A stretch of 64,000 bases of DNA from an uncultured delta proteobacterium (GCA_963785235.1 CAWAUM010000005.1:448001-512000), one strand, 5' to 3'. Shown: positions 47,504 through 64,000, counted from the stretch's first letter. The notes: a model not told the origin generated them from the sequence alone. Numbers and translations: made by a program.

Positions 47504-48472
47504 TTACCAGTGAACCTTTAACTCCGAGATGATTGCGGTGATCAGTTCATGAGGCACTACATCAAAGGAAGGATTGAATACTCTCACCCGTGGGGCGCTC
47601 TGTGTTCCATGGAAAAAAAGTACCTCATCTGCGTCACGTTCCTCAATGGTTATATCATCCCCCGTGGGGGTTAACGGATCAAAGGTTGACCTGGGCGCTG
47701 CAATATAGAATGGTATTCCATGGGCACGTGCAAGAACTGCCAATGAATAGCTGCCTACCTTATTGGCAGTATCATGGTTGCAGGCGATCCTGTCAGCCCC
47801 CACGATCACGGCATCGACCTGTCCTTGCTTCATGAGCCAACCTGCCATACTGTCGGTGATGAGCGTGCAGGGTATGGTGTCGTTTTTCAGCTCATATGCC
47901 GTTATCCTTGCACCCTGAAGCAATGGCCTTGTCTCATCAACATATACCATCTTGAGCTTGTGCTGCTCATGGAGCCTTCGGATGACCCCGATGGCAGTCC
48001 CGATTCCTCCGGTAGCAAGGGAACCGGCATTGCAGTGAGTCAGCACGGAATATTCTTTGCCCTGTTCGAACAAACTTGCACCAAGCACCGCCATTGACTC
48101 GTTTGCTTCAATCTCTTCTTGCCAGATGGCCTGTGCTTCTTGCTGAAGCCTTTCCAGAAGATGTCTTTCAGCCGTGGATGCGATCGAAGAAAGACAACGT
48201 TTAACCGCCCAGGCAAGATTAACAGCCGTGGGCCTTGCATTGATAAGGCTTTCTGCAGCCTTTTCCACATGAATCCTACCCTTTGATGCTTCCAGCACAA
48301 GCCCGAATGAGGCGGCAATGCCAATGGCAGGTGCACCTCTTACGGCCAGCGTTTTAATGGCCTGGACAACTTCATTGGATGATGTGCAGGCAATCCATGT
48401 CTCTTCCAGCGGAAGCCGCCTCTGATCGAGTATGTAAAATATTTTATCCTTAAAGTAAAATGGCCTGATCAT
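47504..48472 (-). CDS. mtnA: Methylthioribose-1-phosphate isomerase
   Basis: LDQRRLP, VRGAPAIG, ARPTAVNL, THCNAG, ETRPLLQG and GADRIA. Confidence 0.95.
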   Translation of the reverse strand: MIRPFYFKDKIFYILDQRRLPLEETWIACTSSNEVVQAIKTLAVRGAPAIGIAASFGLVLEASKGRIHVEKAAESLINARPTAVNLAWAVKRCLSSIASTAERHLLERLQQEAQAIWQEEIEANESMAVLGASLFEQGKEYSVLTHCNAGSLATGGIGTAIGVIRRLHEQHKLKMVYVDETRPLLQGARITAYELKNDTIPCTLITDSMAGWLMKQGQVDAVIVGADRIACNHDTANKVGSYSLAVLARAHGIPFYIAAPRSTFDPLTPTGDDITIEERDADEVLFFHGTQSAPRVRVFNPSFDVVPHELITAIISELKVHW

Positions 48473-49903
48473 CTAGGATAAGAGTTCCTTAACTAACTCA
48501 CCGGCAACCTTGGGGTTGGCCTTGCCTTTGCTTTTTTTCATGACCTCGCCCACAAAAAAGCCCAGCAGCTGGTGCTTGCCGGCATGGTACTGGGTTACCT
48601 CCTTGGGGTTGGCTTCAATGATCTCACTGATGATTCTTTTCAATGAATCCTCGTCACTCACCTGCTCAAGACCCAGTTCTTTAATTATTTCCCGAGCGCT
48701 CCTTCCGGTGTCTGCCATTTTGGTGAGTATCTCCTTTGCCATAAGGCCCGAGACTATGCCATTTTTCATAAATTCCAGGAGCCCTGTGAGCATGGCAGGC
48801 GTCACTTTCAAATCATTAATTTCTATACCTTTTTCATTGAGGACGCGCAGGACCTCGGACATTATCCAGTTGCTGATTTCTTTTGGTGAATTCAGCAGAC
48901 TGACACACTGCTCGAAATAATCCGCCATAGATCTGGTCTGGGTAAGCTGCTCTGCATCATAGGCCCGAATGCCATACTCTTGCACGAACCGCCGGCGTTT
49001 TGCCTCCGGCAGCTCAGGCATTGAGCCGGCTATTCTTTTGATCCATGCATCATCAATGAAAACAGGGATGAGGTCGGGATCGGGGAAATAACGGTAATCA
49101 TGACTTTCTTCCTTGGACCTCATGGGCTGTGTCTTATTCTGTGATGTATTCCACAGAAGGGTTTCCTGAATAACATCCATGCCTGCTTCGCCACGTTGTG
49201 TCTGCCTGGCAATCTCGTATTCCAAGGCCCTCTGCACATTCCTGAACGAGTTCATGTTTTTGAGCTCTGTGCGTGTCCCGAGCCGGTCTGAGCCCTTTCT
49301 CATAACCGATATATTTGCGTCACACCTCAAAGATCCCTCTTCCATGCTTCCGTCGCATATTTCCAGGTACATGAGGATCTGCCGCAATTCCTTCAGATAG
49401 GCCACTGCCTCCTGGGTAGTCGATATATCCGGCTCGGTCACAATTTCAAGCAACGGCACACCGGCACGGTTAAAGTCGATATAAGATACGGGTTTTGTCT
49501 CGTCATGTATGCTTTTGCCCGCATCTTCCTCCATGTGGATGCGCCTGATGCGTATGCTTTTCTTCACACCGTCCGCCTCGATGACCAGGTGGCCGTTACT
49601 GCATAACGGGTTCTCGTATTGAGTAATCTGGTAGCCCTTTGGCAGGTCAGGGTAGAAGTAATTCTTTCTGGCGAACACATTGTGTGTTTCTATCGTGCAC
49701 CCCAGGGCAAGACCAAGCTTGATCCCCAAGTCCACAACCTTTCTGTTCAACACGGGCAGTACACCCGGCATGCCCATGCAGACAGGGCATGTATTTGTAT
49801 TTGGGCTGTACACGGAGGCAGCTGAACATGGACAGAATATCTTGGATTCTGTCAGGAGCTGTGCATGAACCTCCAGACCGATGACCTCAACAAAGTCATT
49901 CAC
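48473..49903 (-). CDS. gatB: Asp/Glu-tRNA amidotransferase subunit B
   Basis: [24 protein letters not shown] and DYRYFPDPD. Confidence 0.98.
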
Positions 49904-51321
49904 GGTCTCACCTCGTGGAATTTCGTGTGCTCCTGGAAGGTCATTGCAGCGCCCAGGAGAACATGGTCCATAAAGGCCGGCGCCATAAGCTGGAGCCCGA
50001 TGGGCATCCCATTATCGCCGAACCCGCACGGTATGCTCAACGCAGGAATACCTGAAAGATTTGCAGGGATGGTGTAGATGTCCAGGAGATAGATACTCAA
50101 CGGATCATCAATCATTTCGTCAAGACCGAAGGCGGTCACCGGAACGGTTGGGCCTGCAATGATGTCGCAGACCTCGAAGGCTTTCCGGAAATCATCGACA
50201 ATGAGCGTCCGTACCTGTGAAGCCTTTCGGAAGTATGCATCGTAATAGCCTGCAGACAAAACATAGGTTCCGAGCATGATCCGGCGTTTCACCTCCGCGT
50301 TGAATCCTCTTGCCCTTGTCTCGCAGTACATATCGAAGAGGTCCTTCTCATCACCATGCCGGATGCCATATCGTACGCCGTCGTATCGCGCAAGGTTGGA
50401 ACTGGCCTCTGCAGGGGCTATGATATAGTACACGGCCACTCCATACTTGATATGGGGAAGATCAATGGGAACAATCTTGGCGCCGAGCTCCTGAAAAACA
50501 CCAATGGAATACCTCACAGAGCGCTCCACATCACGGGCTAGGCCATCGGAAAAGAAGATATCTGGGACACCTATCCGGATTCCATGCATATCGATTCCAT
50601 CAAAAGAAGTTGCTGCATATTCACGTGGTACGCTTGTGGAATCCCGCTGGTCATAGCCTTTTATGGCATCGAACAGAACGGCAACATCGCGGGCGCTGCG
50701 GCCCATAGGACCGATCTGATCCAGGGACGAGGCAAAGGCCACAAGCCCGTAGCGAGACACGGCCCCATTGGTCGGTTTCAGCCCGGTAATACCGCAGAAA
50801 CTCGCTGGCTGGCGGACAGACCCGCCAGTGTCTGATCCAAGCGCTCCTGCACACAACCCTGCAGCTACGGCAGCAGCGGATCCCCCACTTGAGCCTCCAG
50901 GTGTTCTTTTTTCATCCCAGGGATTCTTTGTGGGGCCGATGTTGCTCGTTGTCGTGGTGGAGCCCATGGCAAACTCGTCCAGATTGGTCTTTCCGACGAT
51001 GATGGCCCCGCGTTGCTTCAGCTGTTCAATGACATGAGCATCATAGGTTGGAACATAGTTTTTCAGGATATCCGATGAACAGGTAGTTCGTATTTCCTTG
51101 GTACTTATATTGTCTTTGACGGCTATGGGGATGCCCAGCAGCAAATCTTCATCTCCATGCAGAATTGCCTTACCCGAAAGCACTGCCTGTTGAAGCGCAC
51201 CATCTTCATTCACCGTGACAAAGGCATTAAGAGGGTCACTCTTGATGCGCACCAAGAGTTTCTCAATGTGCTTTCTGGGTGTTACACCATCATTACGGTA
51301 GATGCGTGCAGTATCCAGCAT
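49900..51321 (-). CDS. gatA: Asp/Glu-tRNA amidotransferase subunit A
   Basis: [32 protein letters not shown] and SNLARYDG. Confidence 0.98.
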
Positions 51322-51329
51322 GACAGGCT

Positions 51330-51617
51330 TTATTCTATTACCTTAGGTACGACAAAGGTATTCTCGCTCATACACGGGGCATTGCGCTGTGTATCGCCAG
51401 AAGATTGTGATTGCTTGACAACATCATCCCTGAGGGCATTAATTATGGATTGGGCATGGAATGTCGGTTCTACACCGGTTGTGTCGACTCCTCCTAAAAT
51501 TTCCATATAGGAAAGGATTTCGCTCAGTTCTTTTTGGTATGATGCCGACTCCTGGGGTTCAAGTTTAAGACGTGCAAGACGGGCCACATGCAAAACATCA
51601 GCCTTGGTTATCTTCAC
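51330..51617 (-). CDS. gatC: Asp/Glu-tRNA amidotransferase subunit C
   Basis: HVARLARL, LRDD and FVVPKVIE; GTG start with SD. Confidence 0.95.
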   Translation of the reverse strand: MKITKADVLHVARLARLKLEPQESASYQKELSEILSYMEILGGVDTTGVEPTFHAQSIINALRDDVVKQSQSSGDTQRNAPCMSENTFVVPKVIE

Positions 51618-51793
51618 CTGCCCTCCCTTAAAAATCCAATTATAAGATATATATAATAAATGATGAATATCCTCAAGGATAGGGTTAACATTGAAAATAA
51701 TCTAGAAAACGATTGATAATTTTCTATAAGCCTTTTATAGTTGTGCGATTATTAGAGTCTAAGCATATTCATTATTCAATCGAGGGGGATTCC

Positions 51794-53615
51794 ATGACGA
51801 AGTTTGAAGAAAAATCCATTCCAGCTGTCTTTCAGAATCGTACGCAGCAATTTGGTCAAAGGGCAATTGTTGCCTATAAAAACAAGAGTGGAGTATATGA
51901 AGATATCTCCTGGAATACGATGCATGAGATGGTGCGTAACCTCGGATATTTTCTCCTTGCAAGAGGGGTAAAGCCCGGCGACAAGATCGCACTTTTCTCG
52001 CCTAACCGCTACGAGTGGTGGGTTGCTGATCTGGCCATCCTTTCCGTCGGGGCAGTGAACGTTCCCATCTATGCCACGAACTCTGCAGAAGAGTCACGGT
52101 ATGTCATTGAAAATTCCGATTCAAAGATGTGTTTCGTTGCCACCAAGGAGCACATGAAGAAAATCCTGGAGGTGAAATCCAAACTCCCGAACCTGGACGA
52201 AATCATCAGTTTTGACCCCCTGGATAATCCCATCGAAGGGGTAATCGAACTGACGGAAGCCCTGAAGGAAGGTGCAGCCAAGGCTAATGCAAAGGTATTT
52301 GACGAAAGGATCAATGCCATCAAGGGCCAGGACCTGGCAACACTCATCTACACTTCCGGAACCACCGGACCCCCGAAGGGCGTCATGCTCTCACACAACA
52401 ACTTTTTTGCCAATGTGAACCAGATCTACAATGTGGACCCCGAGTTGTTCAAGAGGGCTGACGAACTCACCTTCCTGTCTTTCCTGCCCCTTGCACATTC
52501 ATTTGAGCGCACCTGCGGTTACTACACCCCCATGTCACATGGAATGAAGGTATATCTTTGCAGAAGACTTCGCCAAGATCCTTGACAACTTCCAGGAGGT
52601 GAGGCCGGTATGTATCGTGAGCGTGCCAAGGCTTTACGAGAAGATACACTCAGGTATTGTGGCAAAGGTTTCTACCGCACCACCTGTAAAAAAGGCTATC
52701 TTCAACTGGGCTATGGGCATTGCAGCCCAGAACCTCCCCTATATTTGCAATGAGAGGCCCAGGACAGGCTGGTACGCCTTCAAATACAATCTGGCAAACA
52801 AGATCATTTTTTCCAAACTAAAATATGCCCTTGGGATGAATAAGCTCGAGTTCGCCTTTTCCGGCGGAGGTCCTTTGTCCGTATCCGATGCGGAATTTTT
52901 CCTGGGTATGGATATAACGGTTCTTGAAGGCTTCGGTCTTACTGAGACAACACCTGTAACCAATGCCAATAATCGTCACAAGATCAAACCCGGCACCGTC
53001 GGACCGACAGTGAAAGACACGCTGGTGAAGATCGGAGATGGCGGAGAACTCCTCATTAAGGGCCCACAGGTTATGATGGGGTATTATAAGAATCCGGAGG
53101 CAACAAAAGAGGCATTCACTGATGACGGCTTTTTCAGAACCGGCGATATCGCTGAGATTGATAAAGATGGTTATGTGAAGATCACAGGCCGTCTCAAGGA
53201 TATCATCGTCACATCCGGGGGCAAGAACATATCACCCCAGAATATCGAGAACAGCATGAAGACCTCTAAATATATTGAACAGGTTGCCATTATCGGAGAT
53301 AACCGGAAATATCTCTCCGCCCTCATCGTACCGGCATTTACCGAGCTTGAGGCCTGGGCAAAAAATAACGGCATCCAGTTTTCCTCCCGAATAGAGCTTA
53401 TAGAGAACCCCAAGGTCAAAGATCTCTTCACAAGGGAGATCGAAGAGAACATGAAGGACTATGCCAGGGTTGAACAGATTAGAAAATTTGCATTAATTGA
53501 AAAGGAATGGTCACAGGAAACCGATGAACTGACCCCTACACTCAAGCTCAAGCGCAGGGTCATTAATCAGAAATTCAACAACATTATAGAGAGCCTGTAT
53601 CCTCCGGAAGATTAG
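51794..53615 (+). CDS. Long-chain fatty acid-CoA ligase; apparent frameshift near 52556
   Basis: IYTSGTTGPPKGV in the first ORF; GFGLTET, TGDI and GGKNISPQ in the second; colinear with the intact paralog downstream. SD GAGGGGG before ATG 51794. Confidence 0.9.
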
Positions 53616-53619
53616 TGTA

Positions 53620-53648
53620 TTGAAAAAAATTATTACATCTATTATATT
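53620..53648 (+). promoter_or_regulatory. Putative sigma70 promoter (TTGAAA-N17-TATATT) for the second ligase
   Basis: Hexamers at 53620-53625 and 53643-53648; SD GAGGAGG before ATG 53706. Confidence 0.45.
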
Positions 53649-53705
53649 AAGTAAATATTCAAAATTAGTACTTGCGACAATAATCTATTTGAGGAGGGTT
53701 ATCCT

Positions 53706-55517
53706 ATGGCAGAATTAAAAGAAACATCTATGGGCGCAGTTTTTCAGAATCGTGTCCAGAAATTCGGTGACAAGGCCCTGGTGAAGTATAAGAACAAGCA
53801 GGAAATATGGGAAGAGATCTCTTGGAACAAGATGAACGAAATGGTTCGTGATCTTGCTTTTTTCCTTATTAACAGGGGGATACAGCCCGGCGACAAGGTT
53901 GCCCTCTTCTCGCCGAACAGGTATGAGTGGTGGATTGCAGACCTTGCCATCATTTCCGTAGGCGCAGTAAATGTACCCATCTATTCTACAAATTCATCGG
54001 AAGAGTGCCGGTACGTTATCGATAACTCTGACTCCAAGATGTGTTTTGTAGGCACGAAAGAGCACATGGATAAAATCCTCCAGGCAAAGGGAAAGCTCCC
54101 GAACCTGGGTGATGTAATCCTCTTCGATGACCTCGACAAACCTGCAGGCGATGTTATTAACCTGAAGGATGCATTCAAGGAAGGCAAGGCATACAAGAAC
54201 AAAGACGAGTTCGAAAAGAGGCTCAAATCAATTAATTTTGAAGATGTAGCGACCATTATTTATACCTCTGGGACTACCGGAAATCCCAAAGGTGTCATGC
54301 TTACCCATAAGAATTTTGTCTCAAATGTTAACCAGGCTTATGACATTGCTCCTGATTTTTTAAAAGGGGACCATACCTTCCTGTCATTCCTTCCTCTGGC
54401 ACATTCACTTGAAAGGACAGTCGGCTACTATATACCCATTTTCCTTGGTCATAAGGTGGCTTTCGCCGAGAGCACGGAAAAGCTCCTTGCAAACTTCGGT
54501 GAAATCCGGCCCACCTTTCTTGTCAGCGTTCCTCGCATCTATGAAAAGGTGCATTCCGGTATCACTGCCAAGGTCGCAAATGCCTCGCCTGTCAAGAAGG
54601 CCCTGTTCGGCTGGGCCATGGGAATTGCAAAGGATAACCTGCCCTACATATGCAACGACAAACCTAGGACCGGCTGGTTTGCATTCAAATACAACCTTGC
54701 CAACAAGCTTATTTTCAGCAAGCTCAAGATAGCTCTAGGAATGGATAAACTACATGGAGCCCTTTCCGGAGGAGGCCCCCTGTCCGTGTCAGATGCAGAA
54801 TTTTTCCTTGGCATGGGCATCAAGGTCCTTGAGGGCTTCGGGCTTACTGAGACAACCCCTATCACCAACGGGAATAAGCCCAACAAAATCAAGCCTGGTA
54901 CTGTTGGCATAGCGGTGAAGGATACCATAATCAAGATCGGCGAAGGCGGCGAGGTTCTGATTAAAGGCCCACAGGTTATGAAGGGTTACTACAAGAACGA
55001 GGCTGCTACCAAAGAGGCCTTTACCTCGGACGGTTTTTTCCGTACCGGAGACATCGGTGAAATCGACAATGATGGCTACCTCAAGATCACCGGACGGATC
55101 AAGGATCTGATCGTCACCTCCGGCGGTAAAAATATTTCTCCTCAGAATATTGAGAATGCCCTCATGACATCACGATTCATCGAGCAGGTGGCGGTAATCG
55201 GCGATAACAGGAAATACCTCTCAGCCCTTATCGTGCCATCGTTTGCAGCCCTGGAGCCTTGGGCAAATGAGAATAACATCACCTTCACGGGCAGGAAGGA
55301 CCTGATTGCGAAGCCCGAGATCCAGAAGCTTTATGAGACTGAACTTGTCGAGAATATGAAGGACTATGCACGTGTTGAACAGATCAGGAAGTTCACCCTG
55401 CTGGAGACTGAATGGTCACAGGATACCGGTGAGATGACACCTACCATGAAGGTCAAGAGAAAGGTGATCAACCAGAAGTACGGTCCGGTAATCGAGGCAA
55501 TGTATCCCCCGGAATAA
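53706..55517 (+). CDS. Long-chain fatty acid-CoA ligase
   Basis: IYTSGTTGNPKGV, GFGLTET, TGDIG, GGKNISPQ and EMTPTMKVKR. Confidence 0.94.
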   Translation: MAELKETSMGAVFQNRVQKFGDKALVKYKNKQEIWEEISWNKMNEMVRDLAFFLINRGIQPGDKVALFSPNRYEWWIADLAIISVGAVNVPIYSTNSSEECRYVIDNSDSKMCFVGTKEHMDKILQAKGKLPNLGDVILFDDLDKPAGDVINLKDAFKEGKAYKNKDEFEKRLKSINFEDVATIIYTSGTTGNPKGVMLTHKNFVSNVNQAYDIAPDFLKGDHTFLSFLPLAHSLERTVGYYIPIFLGHKVAFAESTEKLLANFGEIRPTFLVSVPRIYEKVHSGITAKVANASPVKKALFGWAMGIAKDNLPYICNDKPRTGWFAFKYNLANKLIFSKLKIALGMDKLHGALSGGGPLSVSDAEFFLGMGIKVLEGFGLTETTPITNGNKPNKIKPGTVGIAVKDTIIKIGEGGEVLIKGPQVMKGYYKNEAATKEAFTSDGFFRTGDIGEIDNDGYLKITGRIKDLIVTSGGKNISPQNIENALMTSRFIEQVAVIGDNRKYLSALIVPSFAALEPWANENNITFTGRKDLIAKPEIQKLYETELVENMKDYARVEQIRKFTLLETEWSQDTGEMTPTMKVKRKVINQKYGPVIEAMYPPE

Positions 55518-55537
55518 GGGATCAGACGAATAAGTAT

Positions 55538-55572
55538 AAAAGGCGGAGGCTTAATGCCTCCGCCTTTTTTTT
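55538..55572 (+). terminator. Rho-independent terminator, possibly bidirectional
   Basis: AAAAGGCGGAGGC-TTAAT-GCCTCCGCCTTTT followed by a T run, between convergent genes. Confidence 0.9.
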
Positions 55573-55738
55573 GTTTTAAACCAGATTTTGCTTCTAAGTT
55601 AAGTTAAAAAACCTGATCCGTTCAAAACCTATTTTAAAAACGATACAGCAGTCGCTATGAGTTTCATGCTTAAGGCATCCCAATGAGCATGCAGCTATTG
55701 TGGGTACATTAAATTGCAGATCTGGGTATAAAACGACA

Positions 55739-56506
55739 TTAAATCTTTGCGGCCAGTACTGCTGCCCCAATGGCACCGTTAACCTGCGCAAGGTCGTTCA
55801 CCTCAATATGCAAACCGAATTTTTTCTCAAGGGCCTTTACCACGCCGATGTTCTTGGCTACTCCACCGGTCATCATGATGGGTGGTTCTGCCTTTACCCG
55901 CTGCGTCATGGCAAAAACACGTGAAGCCACTGATTCGTGTATGCCTGCAATGATGTTGTCTCTCGTTTCTCCTTTTGAAATCAGAGAGATAACCTCCGAT
56001 TCGGCAAATACCGTGCATATGCTGCTGATGCGTGCAGGATTAATAGCCTTTAAAGATAAGGCACCGAAATCATCCAGGTTTACCTCCAGTGCCCTTGCCA
56101 TTACTTCCAGAAAACGGCCGGTGCCTGCCGCACACTTGTCGTTCATGACAAAATCTTTCACCATGCCTGATGTATCCACGACAAGGGCTTTGCTGTCCTG
56201 GCCACCAACATCTATTACGGTCCTGATATTGTCCTGAAGAAAATGAGCCCCTGCTCCGTGGCAGATGATCTCAGTCATGGCCTTGTCTGCAAAGGGCACA
56301 CTGTTTCTCCCATAGCCTGTGGAGATAATCTTTTGGATGGAAGATTCCTCTATGTGAAAATCAGAAAGCAACTCTTCAAACACTCTTCTGGCAGCAACTT
56401 CAACATTGTAACCGGTAAAAATCACCCTAGTTCCAATGATGCGTCCGTCATCAATGAGTGCTGCCTTGGTGGTGATGGATCCGATATCTATCCCTGCTGT
56501 TATCAT
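55739..56506 (-). CDS. ATP-dependent [4Fe-4S] activator of 2-hydroxyacyl-CoA dehydratase (HgdC/HadI family)
   Basis: GIDIGSITTK, STGYGR, IDVGGQDSK, MNDKCAAGTGRFLE, SSICTVFAESE and TGGVA. Confidence 0.93.
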   Translation of the reverse strand: MITAGIDIGSITTKAALIDDGRIIGTRVIFTGYNVEVAARRVFEELLSDFHIEESSIQKIISTGYGRNSVPFADKAMTEIICHGAGAHFLQDNIRTVIDVGGQDSKALVVDTSGMVKDFVMNDKCAAGTGRFLEVMARALEVNLDDFGALSLKAINPARISSICTVFAESEVISLISKGETRDNIIAGIHESVASRVFAMTQRVKAEPPIMMTGGVAKNIGVVKALEKKFGLHIEVNDLAQVNGAIGAAVLAAKI

Positions 56507-56523
56507 TAAGCTAAATGTCCTTT

Positions 56524-57288
56524 TTAAATTGCAGTAGCTCCACCATCCACGAGCAAGGTCTGGCCGGTGATAAAATCAGCGGCATCGGAGGCGAGAAACA
56601 GCACAGGGTGCACTACATCCATTGGCTCTGCTATGCGTCCCAAAGGTATGCCTTTTACGATCTGTTCATATATCATGTCATTGGACCAGAAGGGCTTGCT
56701 GAATTCGGTCCTGACCATGGAAGGCGCCACTGCATTCACCTGGATACCGAACTGGGCAAGTTCTGCAGCCAGGACCTTGGTGAGCATCTCGACGCCGGCC
56801 TTGGCGATCCCGTAAATTCCCATGGCAGGCGAAGCCCTTCTGCCTGCGATTGATGATATATTCACGATCTTGCCCTTCTTCTGTTCCTGCATGATTATTG
56901 CTGCCTTCCTGGAACACAGGAACGTCCCGTTCAGGTTTGTATCCATGATTTTTTGCCACATGGCAAGCTCCGTGTCTGCAACTGAAGGGGTGAGAAGGTT
57001 CATGCCCACATTGTTAATAAGGGCATCGATTCGCGAGAATTTGGTGAGCACGGTGTTGAACATCTTCTCCACGTCATCTTCCTTGGCAATATGGGCGCTT
57101 GCTGTAATAACCCTGTCCTTGCCATTGATATTTGCAAGGGCAGAATCAAGGGTCTCTTGTTTCCTGCCGCAGATTGCAACCTTGGCCCCCTGGTTGACCA
57201 GCTCTTTGGCAATCTCCAGGCCGATGCCCCTGCTCCCGCCCGTAACCACAAAAACCCTGTCTTCAAGTCCATATCTGATTGCACCCAT
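56524..57288 (-). CDS. Short-chain dehydrogenase/reductase
   Basis: TGGSRGIG, NNVG, catalytic S and YGIAK, PLGRIA and FITGQ. Confidence 0.93.
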   Translation of the reverse strand: MGAIRYGLEDRVFVVTGGSRGIGLEIAKELVNQGAKVAICGRKQETLDSALANINGKDRVITASAHIAKEDDVEKMFNTVLTKFSRIDALINNVGMNLLTPSVADTELAMWQKIMDTNLNGTFLCSRKAAIIMQEQKKGKIVNISSIAGRRASPAMGIYGIAKAGVEMLTKVLAAELAQFGIQVNAVAPSMVRTEFSKPFWSNDMIYEQIVKGIPLGRIAEPMDVVHPVLFLASDAADFITGQTLLVDGGATAI

Positions 57289-57299
57289 CGTATCATCTC

Positions 57300-58535
57300 C
57301 TACCCTTTTTTCTGTTTGATGATTTCCATGAAGGCATCTATCCTTGTGGCAGTCTGACTCTCAGAAAAGCTCCGTTCATCCACCATGTGCGACTCGATCA
57401 TCATGCATGGTATTCCCTTTTGTTCCTGGATCATAGCGGCGATGTCGTACTGACCAAATGAATACGGTTTGCAGCTCCGGTTTGAATGCAACACCACGCC
57501 GTCTACCTGATACTTGTCTATCATCTCAAAGATGGTCTTTACCATCTCATCGATACCGATGTTGAGGTATATTCGCGTATAGGCCTCAGCCATGGAATCA
57601 AGAAAATTGTTCTCATCTATGTATTTCATGGATCCGCACCAGGCGGTTGTGTAGGTGTCTGCCACCAGGCATGCATCGTGAGAGGCGAAGGTATCCGAGA
57701 GCCACTTGAGGCGATACCAGACAGGCAGATTGTCCCACAGGAGGCGGTATCGCTCGTTGGGCAAGGCCCAGATCTCCTGCTGGATGCGCTCTTTCATCTC
57801 AGCAAGGAGCTCTTTGTAAAAGTCGATAACAATCTGTGTCCCGCGCAGGGTGACGATAAGGGCCAGGAAGAAAAAAGCATCAAAGGCCGTCATGGGAGCA
57901 GGCTGATGTGCCGCCGTATCGAGTACTTCTTGCCATAATCGCTGGCCTTCAATGGAAAGCCGACCGACTTCCTTGCTTTTTTCCATATCAAAGGGCTTGC
58001 CACATGCCTGTTCAAGAAATGCAATGTATTCGTCAATCTGCTTGCGCACGTAAGTCCTTGCTATATCGGGAAACTCGGTGTGGCAAAAAGGTGTATCGAA
58101 GATGAAGAGAGGTACATTGAAATAGCGGGCATGTACCTCATACCATTTTAGCACCGTACCACAGATATTGTTGCAGCAGATGAGCATGTCGGGTTTCGGC
58201 AAGCCTCCTATGGGCCCGCCGTTTTCGCGGGCGCAGGCTATATCGGCCCTTGCATAAGAGCACAGGTCAGTGCTGTAGCCCAGGGCCTCCGCCTTTTCAC
58301 AAAGGTCGGAGCCCATATGTGAGGCCCCTATCATTGCATCATAGTTCTCCGGGTAGACAGGGATCACATCCATGGCTATCAAAGGCTCAACAGGTCCTCC
58401 GCTGGTAATCCAGGCAACCTTTTTGCCTGTTTGCGAGGCTGATTTTGCATCAATGTAATACTCGGTCATAATCTCCCGCATTCTTGTGGCTGACCTGAAC
58501 TTCCTTTTCTTCTTATCTGTATCAGGGGTGCTCAT
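57300..58535 (-). CDS. 2-hydroxyacyl-CoA dehydratase alpha-type subunit (HadB/FldB/HgdA-like)
   Basis: VYPEN, AEALGYSTDLCSYAR, CNNIC.TVLKWYE and HSNRSCK; SD AAGGAG before ATG 58535. Confidence 0.85.
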   Translation of the reverse strand: MSTPDTDKKKRKFRSATRMREIMTEYYIDAKSASQTGKKVAWITSGGPVEPLIAMDVIPVYPENYDAMIGASHMGSDLCEKAEALGYSTDLCSYARADIACARENGGPIGGLPKPDMLICCNNICGTVLKWYEVHARYFNVPLFIFDTPFCHTEFPDIARTYVRKQIDEYIAFLEQACGKPFDMEKSKEVGRLSIEGQRLWQEVLDTAAHQPAPMTAFDAFFFLALIVTLRGTQIVIDFYKELLAEMKERIQQEIWALPNERYRLLWDNLPVWYRLKWLSDTFASHDACLVADTYTTAWCGSMKYIDENNFLDSMAEAYTRIYLNIGIDEMVKTIFEMIDKYQVDGVVLHSNRSCKPYSFGQYDIAAMIQEQKGIPCMMIESHMVDERSFSESQTATRIDAFMEIIKQKKG

Positions 58536-58585
58536 GGCATCTCCTTTCAATTTTGCTTTTGAGGCTTAAAACCGTTCCTGCATCA

Positions 58586-59701
58586 CTAGAGCATCTGGAC
58601 AAAGGTATCAAACCGTGTGAGCAGCTGACCCTCGGGTGGAAGCTGGCCTTCGATTTCAAGAAGCATGTTCGGCACGCCCTCCTTGTCCAGATATTCCTTC
58701 AGGTATGGATAGTCAAAGCTATGCGGATCGCAGAATTTGAGGAGAAGGAAGATAACACCATGGATATCGTGCTCATGGGCATACCTGACGAGGGTTTCCC
58801 CCCGTATGGTTATGGACGAATGCTTTGCAGGGCAGATAATCCTCTCAAAATATCTCTGGGCAAGTGCAGTTATAGGATCGCCGCTGGCGTTGATGGTCCC
58901 TTCAAAATAACGTGATCCAGTGCAGAGATCATCCCACACCACATCGGCCCCTGATCGATGGAGCAGTGAATATATGTCAGGCTGGTCACAGACACTGCCT
59001 ACGAGCATAATTCGCTTTCTCTCATGCGGTTTTGCCGGATTGATTGTCTTGAGCTTATGGATGAGTTCGCTGAGCATCCGTGCTGCCTGCTCACGATCTA
59101 GTATAACAGAGGCCCTCATGATCTTGTTCAGATCTTCACTGGAAAGGAGTGCAGGGTTTTCCGAATGCATCTCATACAGGGTTTTCATGGATGAGCGGAT
59201 AAGGTTGTATGTGCGTATCGAATCCCTTATTGCATCATCAGTAATGGTGATTGAAAATCCCTTTTCCAGGTCAGTCTTGAACTTTCTCAGGACATCGGCT
59301 AGGTACTGCCTGGAGCTGTCGGTAGTGAGCTTGACCGGGAGTACGACATCAGCAAAGAACCGAAAGGATGTATTCAATCTCCAGATGTCCGAGAGTCGCT
59401 GGATGGAGTCACAGGTATGAGGGAACACGGCCCCGTCAAGGTAAGACAATGTCCCTGTGAGACCGTCTGCCAGTGCCCCTCTTACTAAAGAACAGCAGTA
59501 GGCCTGGAGGTGTCTGTCAGCAATGCCGCTGTCCCCCATGCTCCCGAAGAGCCTCAAAGGATGAATGCCTGCAGCATGGATGATCTCTTCGGGAGTATAG
59601 GAACAGAAATACCCGAGGATCTTTTTTCCTGCAGCCTTCAGATCCCTTGCATAACCGTGGGGATCGGAAGATACACGGATATATTCCTGAGATAACTTCA
59701 T
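58586..59701 (-). CDS. 2-hydroxyacyl-CoA dehydratase beta-type subunit (HadC/HgdB/BcrC-like)
   Basis: GYFCSYTPEEIIHAAG, YCCSLVR, HTCDS, DDLCTGSR and KFCDP; SD AAGGAG before ATG 59701. Confidence 0.85.
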   Translation of the reverse strand: MKLSQEYIRVSSDPHGYARDLKAAGKKILGYFCSYTPEEIIHAAGIHPLRLFGSMGDSGIADRHLQAYCCSLVRGALADGLTGTLSYLDGAVFPHTCDSIQRLSDIWRLNTSFRFFADVVLPVKLTTDSSRQYLADVLRKFKTDLEKGFSITITDDAIRDSIRTYNLIRSSMKTLYEMHSENPALLSSEDLNKIMRASVILDREQAARMLSELIHKLKTINPAKPHERKRIMLVGSVCDQPDIYSLLHRSGADVVWDDLCTGSRYFEGTINASGDPITALAQRYFERIICPAKHSSITIRGETLVRYAHEHDIHGVIFLLLKFCDPHSFDYPYLKEYLDKEGVPNMLLEIEGQLPPEGQLLTRFDTFVQML

Positions 59702-59740
59702 GTGAACTCCTTCATCTTGATTAAGATGCAAACATGACTG

Positions 59741-59994
59741 AATGCTCTCACAATACTTCTTCGACTTGTATATCTATAAACATTTACACCATAAACATTT
59801 ACACCCGAGGACTTGATCATACGCTTATGACACAACTAGAAAAAGAAGAATTCCTCTGCTACCATAGTATCGATCTCACTAGTGTACATTCAGGTCCGAC
59901 CGTCCCCATGCCTCTTCAAAACCCGAACAGTCTCTTTCGGCTGACCCAAGTATCCAAGCATAACGGCCGGACCTGACAAACAACTCTCGCTCAT
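59741..59994 (-). pseudogene. Decayed internal fragment of an AMP-forming acyl-CoA ligase
   Basis: Manual translation: MSESCLSGPAVMLGYLGQPKETVRVLKRHGDGRT*MYTSEIDTMVAEEFFFF*LCHKRMIKSSGVNVYGVNVY, then (shifted) QVEEVL. These are degenerate GP.VM.GY, W..TGD and R.K.MIK.SG.NVYP motifs. Confidence 0.85.
59776..59805. repeat. Exact 15-bp tandem duplication ATAAACATTTACACC x2
   Basis: 59776-59790 equals 59791-59805; it duplicates the GVNVY codons of the pseudogene. Confidence 0.95.
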
Positions 59995-59999
59995 ACCTG

Positions 60000-60028
60000 T
60001 TGACACGCTTTGTCTGAAAAGCTATGTT
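60000..60028 (+). promoter_or_regulatory. Putative sigma70 promoter for iclR (TTGACA-N17-TATGTT)
   Basis: TTGACA at 60000-60005 and TATGTT at 60023-60028, overlapping the palindrome. Confidence 0.65.
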
Positions 60029-60044
60029 CGATAATGTCGAACAT
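60024..60044. promoter_or_regulatory. Palindromic operator, candidate IclR site (ATGTTCGA-TAATG-TCGAACAT)
   Basis: Perfect 8-bp inverted repeat with a GTTCG...CGAAC core, like GTNCG-Nx-CGNAC boxes of PcaR/PobR-type IclR proteins. Confidence 0.75.
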
Positions 60045-60051
60045 TGTACCG

Positions 60052-60080
60052 ATTATAGAGATTGCCGTCATGGGTGTCAA
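60052..60080 (-). promoter_or_regulatory. Consensus sigma70 promoter for the dehydratase operon (TTGACA-N17-TATAAT)
   Basis: Reverse strand has TTGACA at 60080-60075 and TATAAT at 60057-60052, an exact consensus with 17-nt spacing. Confidence 0.85.
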
Positions 60081-60175
60081 ATTAAAATAACATAATCGGA
60101 AAAATAAAAAGACACAGCGTAATCCATAACATGAATGCCAATACATTGAAATAAATCAGAATAGGAGTAAATGGC

Positions 60176-60940
60176 ATGAAGGAAAAACGTCTGATCCAAT
60201 CCATCAAGCGTGCCTCTGACATCCTGGCCCTGTTCATTGATGAAAAAAAGACTCTCGGCATAACCGAATTTTCAAGACTTCTCGGTCTGCCCAAGTCAAC
60301 CATAGCCACCATAGTTTCCACCCTGGAGGCAATCGGATATTTGGAGAAAGACCCGCTGACCAACAAATATCGCCTTGGCCCGCACATATTTCAGCTTGGA
60401 ATGAAATGCGCCACCAACATGGACCTTGTTAAAATCGGAAGATCATGGATGGAACGACTCTGCTTCCAATTCATGGAGCCGGTCAATGTGGGTATGCTCG
60501 TGGGAGATAAGGTCATGATCGTCATGCGTACCGAGCCGGAAAACCGCTACATGGTCTTTCCGCAGGCAGGCTCTGTCATTCCCGCACACTCCACATGCAT
60601 TGGCAAGGCGCTCTTTGCCTTCATGGACGCTGAAAAGCGTGATCTTCTCCTGGCCAACTACAGCTTCGAACCATGGACATCAAATACCATCACCTCCAAG
60701 CAGGACTTTTTGAAAGAGATTGAAAATGTCAAGGCTACAGGGGTCAGTTTTGACAACCAGGAAAACTTCAATGGCCTCGCCGGCATCGGCGGGCCGGTCT
60801 TCAACCACATGGGCATGGTCATCTCAGCGTTTGCCATAACGGGCAATCCTGAGAATATTTCAAAACGCCGGGATGAAATTATTGAAGCCGTAAGATATAC
60901 TTCTCAACAAGTCTCACTACAACTCGGATATACCCCGTGA
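60176..60940 (+). CDS. IclR-family transcriptional regulator
   Basis: IQSIKRASDIL, HTH LGLPKST, YRLGP, PAHSTCIGKA and DNQENF.GL..I..PV. Confidence 0.95.
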   Translation: MKEKRLIQSIKRASDILALFIDEKKTLGITEFSRLLGLPKSTIATIVSTLEAIGYLEKDPLTNKYRLGPHIFQLGMKCATNMDLVKIGRSWMERLCFQFMEPVNVGMLVGDKVMIVMRTEPENRYMVFPQAGSVIPAHSTCIGKALFAFMDAEKRDLLLANYSFEPWTSNTITSKQDFLKEIENVKATGVSFDNQENFNGLAGIGGPVFNHMGMVISAFAITGNPENISKRRDEIIEAVRYTSQQVSLQLGYTP

Positions 60941-61076
60941 ACTATCATTTATATATCCATCATTTATTTATCCACACCTAAAAGTTATGTCAAAAACCAC
61001 ATTTCTTTATTCATGCTTTTCTCATAAACTGATAATATGAGCTAATCAATCAAGATGCTTAACAAGGGGGTTAAAC

Positions 61077-62312
61077 ATGAAGGCGATATCCGTTCCTTCG
61101 AGGCTCTGGTACGATAACACGGAGAGAGAGCTTACCTTCCCTGACAGGTGGGATGTGACCAACCTCACCTCTCCCGGTCTTAATAAACCCGGACTCACCC
61201 CTGAGCAGATTAAATTTAAGATAGAGAATCCTATTGAAGGAGCAACACTTGTCGAGCTTGCAAGGAACAAAAAGCAGGCAGTCATTGTCTTCGATGATAT
61301 GACCAGGCCTACCCCGGTCAAGGATGTTGCGCAGTTCGTTTTAGATATCCTTCACAGGGCAGGTATGAATCGAGACCAGATAAGATTTCTGTGGTCACTC
61401 GGAAGTCATGGGGCATATGATATGATAAATGCCCGCAAGAAGCTCGGTGAACATATTGTCGAGAATTATGCAGTCTATAATCATGACCCTTTTCAGAATA
61501 CGGTTCGTGTGGGCAGGACCCCAACGGGTGTAGAGGTCTGGTTCAACAGGGAATTCATGTCCTGTGACCTGAAGATCGGGATCGGCTGTATTACCCCTCA
61601 TGTCCATGTAGGATTCGGTGGCGGCGCCAAGATCATCATGCCTGGTGTTGCAGGCATTGAGACCATTAACCAGTTCCATAACCAGCTCTTCCGCGATCAA
61701 TCTCTTACAGGCCTTGGTAATTTTGAAAAGAATATCATGCGCGGTGAATGTGATGCTGCGGGCGATCTGGCAGGGCTCAATTTCAAGATCGACTGCCTCA
61801 TCAACCGCAAGGGCCAAATTACCAACCTTTATTCAGGACCTTTCAGAGCTACCCACGCAGCAGGGGCTGAAGAGGGTAAAGAGCATTATGGTATCCCCTT
61901 CTCCAATGGGTATGACATAGTAGTATGCAACTCTTATGCAAAGGCCAGCGAATCAGCCATTGCACTGCTTCTTTCTCTACAGACCATGAAACCCGGCCAG
62001 GGCACAGCAGTGCTCATCTCCGATGCCCCTGAGGGTCAAGTGCCTCACTATGTAATGAGGGCATGGGGATTAGACTACGGCGGACGGCACTACAACCACC
62101 GAGCTCCGGGTTTTGTGCAACTCCTTATGAAAAAACTCATTGTCCTTAATCCGTTTCCCGACAGGATGGGCCTTGATCTGGTCTGTCACCCGGATGATGC
62201 CAGAACAGTTAAAACATGGCAGGAAGTGCTAGCTATCCTTGAGCAGGATTACCCGAATGAGGCTAAGGTAGCTGTTATACAGGACGGCACCATGCAGTAC
62301 ATGAGACTGTAA
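61077..62312 (+). CDS. LarA-family (nickel-pincer) racemase/epimerase
   Basis: DDMTRPTP, LGSHG, NHD, PHVHVGFGGGAKIIMPGVAG and a downstream His (NQFHN); these match LarA catalytic and cofactor-binding residues. Confidence 0.85.
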   Translation: MKAISVPSRLWYDNTERELTFPDRWDVTNLTSPGLNKPGLTPEQIKFKIENPIEGATLVELARNKKQAVIVFDDMTRPTPVKDVAQFVLDILHRAGMNRDQIRFLWSLGSHGAYDMINARKKLGEHIVENYAVYNHDPFQNTVRVGRTPTGVEVWFNREFMSCDLKIGIGCITPHVHVGFGGGAKIIMPGVAGIETINQFHNQLFRDQSLTGLGNFEKNIMRGECDAAGDLAGLNFKIDCLINRKGQITNLYSGPFRATHAAGAEEGKEHYGIPFSNGYDIVVCNSYAKASESAIALLLSLQTMKPGQGTAVLISDAPEGQVPHYVMRAWGLDYGGRHYNHRAPGFVQLLMKKLIVLNPFPDRMGLDLVCHPDDARTVKTWQEVLAILEQDYPNEAKVAVIQDGTMQYMRL

Positions 62313-62515
62313 ATCTGTTTCTATTCTTAAATAGGCAATCATGATCTCAGATTGCTGAGTTGATCAGCTGATATTATTCAAGCATTTTTTAAAAAAAATA
62401 TTTAGCATAAGAGATTTTCTCTCAAAAATTGCAAGCGTTCATAAATCTATCAATATATTGATTAGTTACATGTAGCTCAAGTCTATGCAACTACTGCTGA
62501 ACTATAAAAAAAGCC

Positions 62516-62544
62516 TTGACAGTGAAAAAGACCTATTGTACCTT
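62516..62544 (+). promoter_or_regulatory. Putative sigma70 promoter for hppA (TTGACA-N17-TACCTT)
   Basis: Hexamers at 62516-62521 and 62539-62544. Confidence 0.5.
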
Positions 62545-62753
62545 TTCGTGGGCTGAATGATGATTCACTCATGAAGGAATTGGGTTGGTTCGTAGGAGAG
62601 GGTAGTATCTATCAAAGCACAAACCAGTGCTGATGCAACATATTTCAGACAGGGATAATTTATAAGTTTAAAATTAAATTTGGAGCTAAGCTAGAAATGT
62701 GCCTGTTATAGGCACATATTCGATGTAGTGACCAATAAACAAGGAGATGAGAC

Positions 62754-64000
62754 ATGAGTAAAGTAAAGCTAAGTTTATGGTCTTTAATGACGGCCATAGG
62801 TACCTCGCTATTTACCATGGTACCTGCAGCCTTCGCAGGGGAAGCGGATATCAAGCTTCCGGATCTGTCCAATGTGATGTTCAACATCGGTGGAGCTGCT
62901 GTAAGTGGTGTGACGATCCTCAATTTTGGGTTGGTGGTATCTGTCATCGGTTTACTCTTCGGCCTTATGCAGTACAGCCAGACCAAGAATCTGCCTGCAC
63001 ACAGCGCCATGCTTTCCGTTTCCAACACCATCTGGGAAACGTGTAAGACCTATCTGGGCCAGCAGGGCAAGTTCCTGTTCGGACTCTGGGTACTCATTGC
63101 GATCTGTATCGTCTATTATTTCTCCGGGCTCCAGGGCGCTCCCCTGTCCAGCATCATCATCATCCTCTTCTGCTCCATCATGGGTATCCTGGGCTCTTAT
63201 GGTGTGGCATGGTTCGGTATCAGGATCAACACCGTTGCCAATTCCAGGGCTGCCTTTGCATCTCTCAAGTCAAGCCCTCTGGATATCGTCAACATCTGCC
63301 TCCGTTCAGGCATGAGCGTCGGCCTTCTGCTGGTGAGCGTTGAACTTTTCTTCATGATCCTGATCCTTGCTTACATACCCGAAAGAACTTGCAGGCCCAA
63401 GTTTTATCGGGTTCGCCATCGGCGAGTCACTGGGTGCCAGTGCACTTCGTATCTGCGGCGGTATCTTCACCAAGATCGCTGACATCGGAAGCGACTTAAT
63501 GAAGATCGTGTTCCAGCTTCCAGAAGACGATCCCAAGAACCCCGGCGTTATTGCCGACTGCACCGGCGACAATGCCGGCGACAGTGTAGGTCCCACAGCC
63601 GACGGCTTCGAGACCTACGGTGTAACCGGTGTCGCCCTGATCGCATTCCTTGCACTGGCCCTGTACGGCAACCAGGAAATGTGCGGCACACTGATTGTCT
63701 GGATATTTGCAATGCGTATCCTCATGATCCTCACCTCACTGGTTTCCTATTTTGTCAATAATGCTCTGAGCAGTGCCCTCTTCAAAGGGAAACTGGAATT
63801 CGACTTTGAACATCCCATGACGAACCTGGTCTGGATAACCTCTATAATTTCCATTTTGGTCACCTTTGCTGCAAGCTATGTCCTGCTTGGCAACCTTGAC
63901 CCTGTTAAATACGGCGACCTGTGGTGGGCACTTTCAATAATCATCAGTTGCGGCACCATTGCCGGCGCCCTGATCCCCGAGTTTACCAAGGTATTCACCA
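62754..64000 (+). CDS. hppA: Membrane-bound ion-translocating pyrophosphatase; apparent frameshift near 63380; runs off the right edge
   Basis: After the shift the frame reads GFAIGESLGASALRICGGIFTKIADIGSDLMKIV...EDDPKNPGVIADCTGDNAGDSVG.TADGFETY. Confidence 0.93.

Follow-up and report, generated by a model that had tools for sequence, protein, structure and literature searches.

Genes and features at the locus

We analysed a stretch of 64,000 nucleotides of DNA from an uncultured delta proteobacterium (GCA_963785235.1, CAWAUM010000005.1:448001-512000), which is called the window throughout. Between positions 51794 and 62312 it holds an operon for a beta subunit, an alpha subunit, a short-chain dehydrogenase/reductase (SDR) and an activator which, to judge from homology, encodes an ATP-activated iron-sulfur radical enzyme of the benzoyl-coenzyme A (CoA) reductase / 2-hydroxyacyl-CoA dehydratase family. 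The alpha subunit resembles HadB, a dehydratase subunit, while the beta subunit has all six cysteines that bind a double-cubane [8Fe-9S] cluster in the reductase subunit BzdN. The locus was mapped from a listing of open reading frames (ORFs) together with Pfam and NCBIfam scans of the window. Every gene described in a first-pass annotation, which had been made from the sequence alone, was found again in its place, the decayed ligase included. The genes of the module are as follows.

51794-53615, plus strand: acyl-CoA ligase 1, FadD-type, in two frames; Pfam AMP-binding in both halves
53706-55517, plus strand: acyl-CoA ligase 2, FadD11-like, 603 aa, convergent on the operon; AMP-binding (259 bits) and AMP-binding_C_3
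55739-56506, minus strand: single ATP-dependent activator (archerase, BcrAD_BadFG family); Pfam 229.9 bits
56524-57288, minus strand: classical FabG-like SDR; Pfam adh_short_C2, 220 bits
57300-58550, minus strand: alpha (catalytic) subunit, HadB-like; PF06050, 269.7 bits
58586-59701, minus strand: beta subunit with the six-cysteine double-cubane ligand set; PF06050, 277.5 bits
59779-59988, minus strand: remnant of the ancestral operon ligase, ~70 codons, inside the operon leader; tblastn
60176-60940, plus strand: IclR-family regulator, divergent from the operon; Pfam HTH_IclR and IclR_C
61077-62312, plus strand: LarA-family (nickel-pincer) 2-hydroxy-acid racemase homologue; Lar_N, 171.6 bits

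On the minus strand the operon genes follow one another in the order beta, alpha, SDR, activator, with intergenic gaps of 11-35 nt, behind a leader of ~340 nt. The start of beta was taken to be the ATG preceded by a GAAGGAG ribosome-binding site.

A HadB-like alpha subunit joined to a six-cysteine beta subunit

The two adjacent HGD-D (PF06050) subunits, with 269.7 bits for alpha and 277.5 bits for beta, were compared with the PDB chains of HadBC, BzdNO, MbdNO and DCCP and with the NCBIfam models. Alpha scored 254.6 bits against HadB (3O3M_A), its best PDB match and the only dehydratase alpha subunit compared, versus 146.3 bits against BzdO and 143.4 bits against MbdO. The NCBIfam scores ran in the same order (HadB 308.7, BcrB 166.4, BzdO 148.7). 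A grouping of the subunits with aryl-CoA reductases had been named in the first-pass annotation as a result that would speak against a dehydratase; by score, alpha groups with HadB instead (254.6 versus 146 and 143).

Residues C97, C130 and C360 of alpha align with Cys95, Cys128 and Cys380 of BzdO and with the cluster cysteines of HadB, and are invariant in 70 of 70 orthologues; they form a predicted three-cysteine [4Fe-4S] site with an open iron. The glutamate of the YPEN motif, E68, is likewise invariant (70/70), is shared with HadB and aligns with BzdO Glu65, for which a role as proton donor has been proposed (PMC11971306). This glutamate had been taken as typical of dehydratases. It is indeed present, but since BzdO has the equivalent residue it is not specific to dehydratases and is no marker by itself. 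Two other positions set alpha apart from BzdO. At the position of BzdO His131, described as the proton-relay histidine (PMC11971306), alpha has V133, and HadB also has a valine there in the same HMMER alignment. A Gly-Gly pair (G52) stands where BzdO has Ala-Trp46 and HadB has Val-Phe. The diagnostic positions are constant in 68-70 of the 70 orthologues, Val133 and Gly52 in all of them. The replacement of bulky residues by Gly-Gly suggests a substrate pocket that is larger, not smaller.

Beta scored 181.3 bits against HadC and 180.8 bits against BzdN. HadC, the only solved dehydratase beta subunit, was the one dehydratase beta used in this comparison. In the HMMER alignment, residues C33, C70, C97, C260, C290 and C324 of beta match Cys36, Cys73, Cys100, Cys263, Cys293 and Cys327 of BzdN at a constant offset of 3. 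These BzdN cysteines are given as the ligands of its [8Fe-9S] cluster in the available text of PMC11971306. All six are invariant in 58 of 58 beta orthologues, and the equivalents of BzdN Arg53, Arg267 and His330 are held in 57-58 of the 58. DCCP (6ENO) also has a cysteine in all six columns, with similar spacing. In HadC, by contrast, the first and fourth of these columns (those of Cys36 and Cys263) hold Pro and Ala, and Gly and Glu stand where BzdN and beta have Arg (Arg53) and His (His330); MbdN lacks three of the six cysteines. Beta is therefore predicted to carry an [8Fe-9S] double-cubane cluster, and its cysteines do not follow the pattern of a single three-cysteine cluster ([4Fe-5S] in HadC) expected of dehydratases. 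Its match to the double_cubane model NF040772 (184.4 bits) lies below the cut-off of 350, and the gene is paired with a different subunit. The grouping with reductases mentioned above thus holds for one half of the enzyme: beta has six cysteines and scores as high with BzdN as with HadC, and alpha is HadB-like.

The accessible part of a 2020 review places the beta subunits of dehydratases among the three-cysteine sequences (PMC7317905). According to the available text of the 2025 BzdNO paper, both double-cubane clusters are abolished in dehydratases, and the [8Fe-9S] cluster has a defined catabolic role in BzdNO alone (PMC11971306). Our literature searches returned no description of a HAD-type or HadB-like alpha subunit with a six-cysteine beta subunit, nor of this module; the available portions of PMC13416013, PMC1924859, PMC5109826 and PMC11887813 held nothing bearing on the locus.

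The activator and the SDR

The activator scored 300.2 bits with TIGR00241 (acyl-CoA dehydratase activase), above the cut-off of 125.4, and gave similar scores against MbdQ (246 bits), HgdC (232 bits) and HadI (222 bits) in the PDB. The operon has one BcrAD_BadFG gene, as first described, and not the two ATPase genes that characterize class I benzoyl-CoA reductases. The best PDB matches of the SDR are 3-oxoacyl-ACP reductases.

Conservation and spread of the module

Eighty loci centred on alpha were surveyed. Beta adjoins alpha in 69 of them; in three of the others the contig ends, and in eight beta is lacking despite flanking DNA. The activator was found near alpha in 56 loci, the SDR in 33 and a FadD ligase of the operon type in 23, while the ligase 2 type and LarA were each present in 13 (for ligase 2, all close relatives) and IclR in 6. 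The conserved core consists of beta, alpha and the activator. Joint occurrence of LarA, IclR, ligase 2, the pyrophosphatase and gatAB is limited to loci whose alpha is 80% identical or more, which is ordinary synteny among close relatives. In more distant loci the recurring neighbours are a divergent TetR regulator, enoyl-CoA hydratase, MaoC and thioesterases. Among the annotated clusters, no ferredoxin-like gene recurs near alpha in more than 3 of the 80 loci. The lack of recurring electron-supply genes fits a redox-neutral reaction that needs only catalytic electrons. A fusion of acetyl-CoA hydrolase/transferase with GNAT recurs in 11 loci, 7 kb off and beyond the pyrophosphatase. The loci that lack beta despite flanking DNA are L023, L049, L051-L054, L060 and L071, with alpha 71-72% identical, to which L183 from the phylum survey described below may be added; in six loci a DJ-1/PfpI-like gene lies directly upstream of alpha in place of beta.

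The genome that contains the window (G000) has 25 HGD-D matches, spread over contigs C1, C5, C7, C9, C10, C12 and C13, and 8 of its ~12 beta-like proteins have six cysteines. The other six-cysteine beta subunits are paired with long alpha-like proteins (~470-520 aa) that belong to no named family and are ~21% identical to alpha. None of these other six-cysteine clusters reaches a benzoyl-CoA reductase cut-off. Only one other clearly HadB-like alpha with a beta of its own was found, on contig C12, and that beta has the HadC pattern. No other operon of this genome combines a HadB-like alpha with a six-cysteine beta. Two clusters (C13:226869-231303 and the fragmented C7:282845-287408) have two ATPase genes, as in four-subunit reductases.

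An even sample of 301 genomes of the phylum was searched for alpha relatives at an E value of 1e-100 or better. Such a relative occurs in 71 of them, and in eleven, this genome included, it is at least 66% identical. Twenty of these loci, spanning the identity range, were examined for beta. Where alpha is at least 48% identical and has an adjacent beta, that beta has six cysteines in 12 of 13 loci, the exception being L176 (G045), while all five loci with an alpha of 40-45% identity have the HadC-like pattern. Of the remaining two, L165 is cut by the contig end and L183 has an alpha for which no beta was found. At L173 (G169:C44) the six-cysteine beta is divided between two ORFs. A quick tree of alpha was built from 31 chosen rows (16 of the 20 fetched loci, 8 of the 80 alpha loci, 6 paralogues from the genome and the query). 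The alphas with six-cysteine partners, together with the lone alpha of L183, fall into two clades (SH-aLRT 96 and 99); the branching among these two clades and the group without a double-cubane partner is not resolved in this tree. The carriers of alpha include cultured species such as Desulfosarcina widdelii.

The ligases and the decayed operon ligase

Ligases 1 and 2 are 64-71% identical across a frame change in ligase 1. FadD11 is the best NCBIfam match of ligase 2 (388 bits, cut-off 950) and of the C-terminal half of ligase 1. Compared with L002 and L003, ligase 1 has a single additional base near 52555-52558 that breaks its frame, and an 1100-nt DNA contig of sequencing run X1 lacks this base. 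The frameshift may be an assembly or sequencing error or a recent mutation at the strain level; the assembly is in 13 contigs, and the adjacent pyrophosphatase is also split. L001, whose alpha is 97% identical, has a single ligase at this site. No CoA-transferase domain was detected by the Pfam scan among the ORFs of 51.7-62.3 kb, in agreement with the contrast drawn in the first-pass annotation between these ligases and the CoA-transferase-based clusters of clostridia.

The decayed ligase reported in the operon is real. The remnant at 59779-59988 (minus strand) matches residues ~400-480 of ligases with E values of ~1e-19 to 1e-25 and has two in-frame stops. We tested it by tblastn with 20 ligases of another FadD-like type, encoded on the alpha strand in alpha-centred loci and in most cases directly upstream of beta; 18 of the 20 matched it, those of L006, L032 and L044 among them. 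The intact ligases of this type are 575 aa long. In L006, whose alpha is 90% identical, the operon ligase is intact and lies between iclR and beta. The remnant and the intact upstream ligases of relatives show that the ancestral operon was ligase-first, with only ~70 codons left here. A derivation of the remnant from ligase 2 was considered and rejected: the leader has no match to ligase 2, and only the operon-type ligase of relatives matches. A perfect tandem duplication of 15 nt lies at 59776-59805 within the remnant; one copy is missing in a near-identical DNA contig of run X1.

The IclR regulator and the LarA homologue

The regulator scored 45.7 bits with HTH_IclR and 130.4 bits with IclR_C in Pfam. 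Its best NCBIfam match, the PcaR/PcaU/PobR subfamily (143 bits), is below the cut-off of that model. The whole locus had been proposed to be a single IclR-controlled system. This did not hold up in the survey: IclR lies near alpha in 6 of the 80 loci, and more distant relatives have a TetR regulator. What had been seen as one system is a lineage-specific neighbourhood around a conserved three-gene core, because LarA (13/80) and IclR (6/80) are linked to it only in close relatives.

Alignment of the LarA homologue with family members of known structure covers only its first 285-320 residues; within them, the motifs around catalytic and cofactor residues line up with those of 9EID, 6D6Z and 5HUQ. 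We take the catalytic residues of LarA to be His108 and His174 and those that hold the cofactor to be Lys184 and His200. The C-terminal part is divergent, and every NCBIfam score is below its cut-off, the best being LarAH6 (190.9 bits against 500), with LarA at 187.2 against 460. A search of the genome for larB, larC and larE, which had been suggested as a check, recovered all three: larB (LarB, 220.9 bits, cut-off 175) and larC (LarC, 369 bits) are adjacent on contig C2, and larE (LarE, 300.2 bits, cut-off 150) is on contig C13.

The linkage of LarA to the operon fared less well. LarA lies within 9 kb of alpha in 13 of the 80 loci, all with an alpha at least 80% identical; it is divergently adjacent to beta throughout this close lineage (13 alpha loci) and is absent from the site in L001 in spite of an alpha that is 97% identical. 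In a second set of 80 loci centred on LarA itself (L081-L160, LarA 68-95% identical), dehydratase genes occur near LarA in ~16-17, and LutA-, LutB- and LutC-like genes lie directly upstream of it on the same strand in 17, 19 and 18 loci, respectively. Because its orthologues lie behind lutABC elsewhere, the LarA homologue is probably a racemase of the lactate type, found beside the radical enzyme only in this lineage, and it may or may not feed that enzyme. In the same set, a split SAF and GD_AH (UxaA-like) dehydratase lies downstream of LarA in 15 of 80 loci, and genes for 2-oxoacid:ferredoxin oxidoreductase follow in 9-10.

Comparison with known systems

HadBC with HadI of Clostridioides difficile (PDB 3O3M/3O3N) is similar to the operon in having two HGD-D subunits and one activator gene. 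It differs in the beta subunit and in the Gly-Gly position of alpha, as described above, and it has no counterpart of the SDR that lies within the operon. Clostridial HadBC is supplied by a CoA-transferase and works in an amino-acid-fermenting Firmicute, whereas the operon has AMP-forming ligases and belongs to a member of the Desulfobacterota.

BzdNO(PQ) of Aromatoleum sp. CIB (PDB 8S02; PMC11971306), a Bzd-type class I benzoyl-CoA reductase, shares the six [8Fe-9S] ligands and the Arg53, Arg267 and His330 equivalents with beta, and Cys95, Cys128, Cys380 and Glu65 with alpha. However, alpha reaches only 146 bits with BzdO and has no equivalents of its His131 and Trp46, there are two ATPase genes versus one, and no ferredoxin or benzoyl-CoA pathway genes lie near the operon.

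DCCP with DCCP-R of Carboxydothermus hydrogenoformans (PDB 6ENO, 7YYL) resembles beta in its cluster cysteines and, according to the accessible part of PMC7317905, resembles the operon in having a single-gene ATPase partner. Unlike beta, which pairs with a three-cysteine HadB-like alpha, DCCP is a homodimer with the double-cubane cluster as its active site, and its match to beta in the PDB is weak (96 bits). The racemase homologue, finally, shares the Lar_N domain and the aligned motifs with LarA and LarAH proteins (PDB 5HUQ, 6D6Z, 9EID) and has larB, larC and larE in its genome, but differs from them in its C-terminal part and in scores below every cut-off.

Proposed reaction and alternatives

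We estimate at roughly 50% the probability that the operon enzyme is a ligase-fed variant of the 2-hydroxyacyl-CoA dehydratases, because alpha is HadB-like and lacks the BzdO histidine, there is a single activator, the neighbours resemble those of beta-oxidation and electron-supply genes are missing. The tight packing of four operon genes downstream of one consensus promoter was also counted in favour of it. From gene content, homology, conservation of the cluster ligands and synteny we infer a reaction, its direction and its substrate, together with roles for the SDR, LarA and IclR, as follows. The single activator, which is presumably homodimeric and bridged by a [4Fe-4S] cluster, would use ATP to inject a low-potential electron, which beta would take up and hold on its predicted [8Fe-9S] double-cubane cluster. 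Alpha would bind the acyl-CoA at its three-cysteine [4Fe-4S] cluster, form a ketyl radical and eliminate water, converting 2-hydroxyacyl-CoA to 2-enoyl-CoA. The substrate acid would be activated by an AMP-forming ligase of the FadD type; the first-gene ligase of the operon has decayed and is plausibly replaced by the convergent pair. The FabG-like SDR would most likely carry out a hydroxy/oxo step, either on 3-hydroxyacyl-CoA after hydration or as an interconversion of 2-oxo and 2-hydroxy forms. IclR and LarA are lineage additions. Its substrate is probably a 2-hydroxy acid that is bulky or has a medium or long chain, as ligases of the FadD type and the exchange of bulky residues for Gly-Gly in alpha may point to a larger acyl group; the long-chain or aromatic 2-hydroxy acid proposed in the first-pass annotation is plausible.

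A number of observations weigh against a dehydratase. Neither subunit reaches its equivalog cut-off (alpha 308.7 against 750 for HadB, beta 217.5 against 700 for HadC), and by these scores alpha and beta are not orthologues of HadBC. Beta is unlike HadC at the cluster site, where it has all six BzdN/DCCP cysteines and the Arg53 and His330 equivalents, and its scores with HadC and BzdN are nearly equal. In the available text of PMC11971306, the double-cubane cluster of BzdN is thought to store two electrons for net reduction. The SDR is FabG-like rather than of a known 2-oxoacid reductase type, and fewer than half of the loci have it. On the substrate side, the ligases match only generic fatty-acid-CoA ligase models, all below the cut-offs, and the usual partner of LarA is lutABC rather than a radical enzyme.

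The main alternative is an ATP-driven two-electron reductase, which we consider unlikely. In such an enzyme the double-cubane cluster of beta would gather electrons over repeated activator cycles, as proposed for BzdN, and alpha could remove the 2-hydroxy group reductively, yielding a saturated acyl-CoA, or could reduce an acyl-CoA that is unsaturated, alicyclic or aromatic. The main argument for it is that 58 beta orthologues show no or almost no variation at the six cysteines and at the positions equivalent to Arg53 and His330. The BzdN score of beta, as high as its HadC score, points the same way, as does the best PDB match of the activator, the reductase subunit MbdQ (246 bits). The single activator gene is compatible with a reductase as well, the double-cubane reductase DCCP also having a single-gene ATPase partner in the accessible part of PMC7317905, and the other six-cysteine betas of the genome are paired with unrelated long alphas, in two clusters with two ATPase genes. 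Alpha, on the other hand, is much nearer HadB than BzdO or MbdO and lacks the His131 and Trp46 equivalents of BzdO, the operon has one ATPase gene, neither ferredoxin genes nor genes for electron regeneration recur close to the module, and the neighbours resemble helpers of beta-oxidation.

The same evidence could be read in a further way that we also regard as doubtful, namely that alpha and beta form a third functional class in which a HadB-type ketyl-radical site and a BzdN-type [8Fe-9S] store together convert a fatty-acid-like CoA ester in a net two-electron reaction driven by ATP, a class that would be widespread in sulfate-reducing and syntrophic Desulfobacterota. A possible reaction is reductive alpha-dehydroxylation, which would lead from 2-hydroxyacyl-CoA directly to acyl-CoA.

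A dehydratase for lactyl-CoA or another short-chain 2-hydroxyacyl-CoA, on an acrylate-type route with LarA as the lactate racemase feeding the enzyme, seems improbable to us. The position of LarA behind lutABC in 17-19 of 80 loci speaks for lactate as its substrate, LarA divergently adjoins beta in the 13 alpha loci of the close lineage, and larB, larC and larE are in the genome. The linkage of LarA is, however, confined to loci with an alpha at least 80% identical and is lost in L001; the ligases match fatty-acid-CoA models and not the acetate or propionate types, no candidate for an acryloyl-CoA reductase was found in the module, and Gly-Gly in alpha, versus Val-Phe in HadB, suggests a larger pocket.

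That the locus is decaying and non-functional in this organism is very improbable: its own ligase is a ~70-codon remnant, ligase 1 is frameshifted in the assembly and the adjacent H+-pyrophosphatase is also in two frames, but beta, alpha, SDR and activator are intact with 91-99% identical copies in close relatives, all ligand residues are kept, a near-identical DNA contig lacks the ligase 1 frameshift, and sequencing error is the likely source of two frameshifts so close together (12 kb) in an assembly of 13 contigs.

A clade in which a HadB-like alpha is paired with a six-cysteine beta would fall naturally between the reductases and the dehydratases. It offers a direct test of whether the double-cubane cluster implies two-electron chemistry or is simply an electron relay inherited from an ancestor. 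With an alpha relative in 71 of 301 sampled genomes the clade is by no means scarce, and its cultured carriers make experiments feasible. The operon may also mark an anaerobic route by which ligases feed 2-hydroxy acids into beta-oxidation; our literature searches found no description of such a ligase-based route in these organisms.

Transcription signals, RNA evidence and flanking genes

The transcription signals of the module and the genes that flank it are the following.

48473-51321, minus strand: gatB, gatA
55538-55568, both strands: hairpin resembling a bidirectional terminator, in the gap that separates ligase 2 from the activator; stem of 13 bp, T runs on each strand; from a consensus scan only
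60024-60044: palindrome with 8-nt arms and a 5-nt spacer, candidate operator, just 3' of the -10 hexamer
60052-60080, minus strand: sigma-70-like promoter toward the operon, 12/12 matches to TTGACA-17-TATAAT; consensus match only
62754-63999, plus strand: H+-pyrophosphatase, in two frames

The palindrome is the sole exact match in the window, and none of 100 shuffles gave the 2 matches seen at two or fewer mismatches. As an IclR operator it has no comparative support, since among 183 loci an exact copy is found only in L001 and L002, the two nearest relatives. An Rfam scan of 51000-64000 gave no matches.

Contigs of two metatranscriptome libraries from one study cover parts of ligase 2, the junction of SDR and activator, and the 5' end of beta with 63 nt of the leader, at 90-99% likeness. 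They give a hint of operon expression, DNA carry-over or relatives being possible sources. The sequencing-run evidence consists of contigs only, which carry no transcript ends, strand or expression level, and says nothing about alpha, larA and iclR, which are uncovered.

The H+-pyrophosphatase is in two overlapping frames (62754-63482 and 63367-63999), a split that suggests a frameshift or an assembly indel; relatives have intact copies at the same place. On the other side of the module, 45905-47218, upstream of the gat genes, encodes a methyl-accepting chemotaxis protein whose sensor domain is of the sCache_3 type, and an IF-2B/MtnA-like gene occupies 47504-48472.

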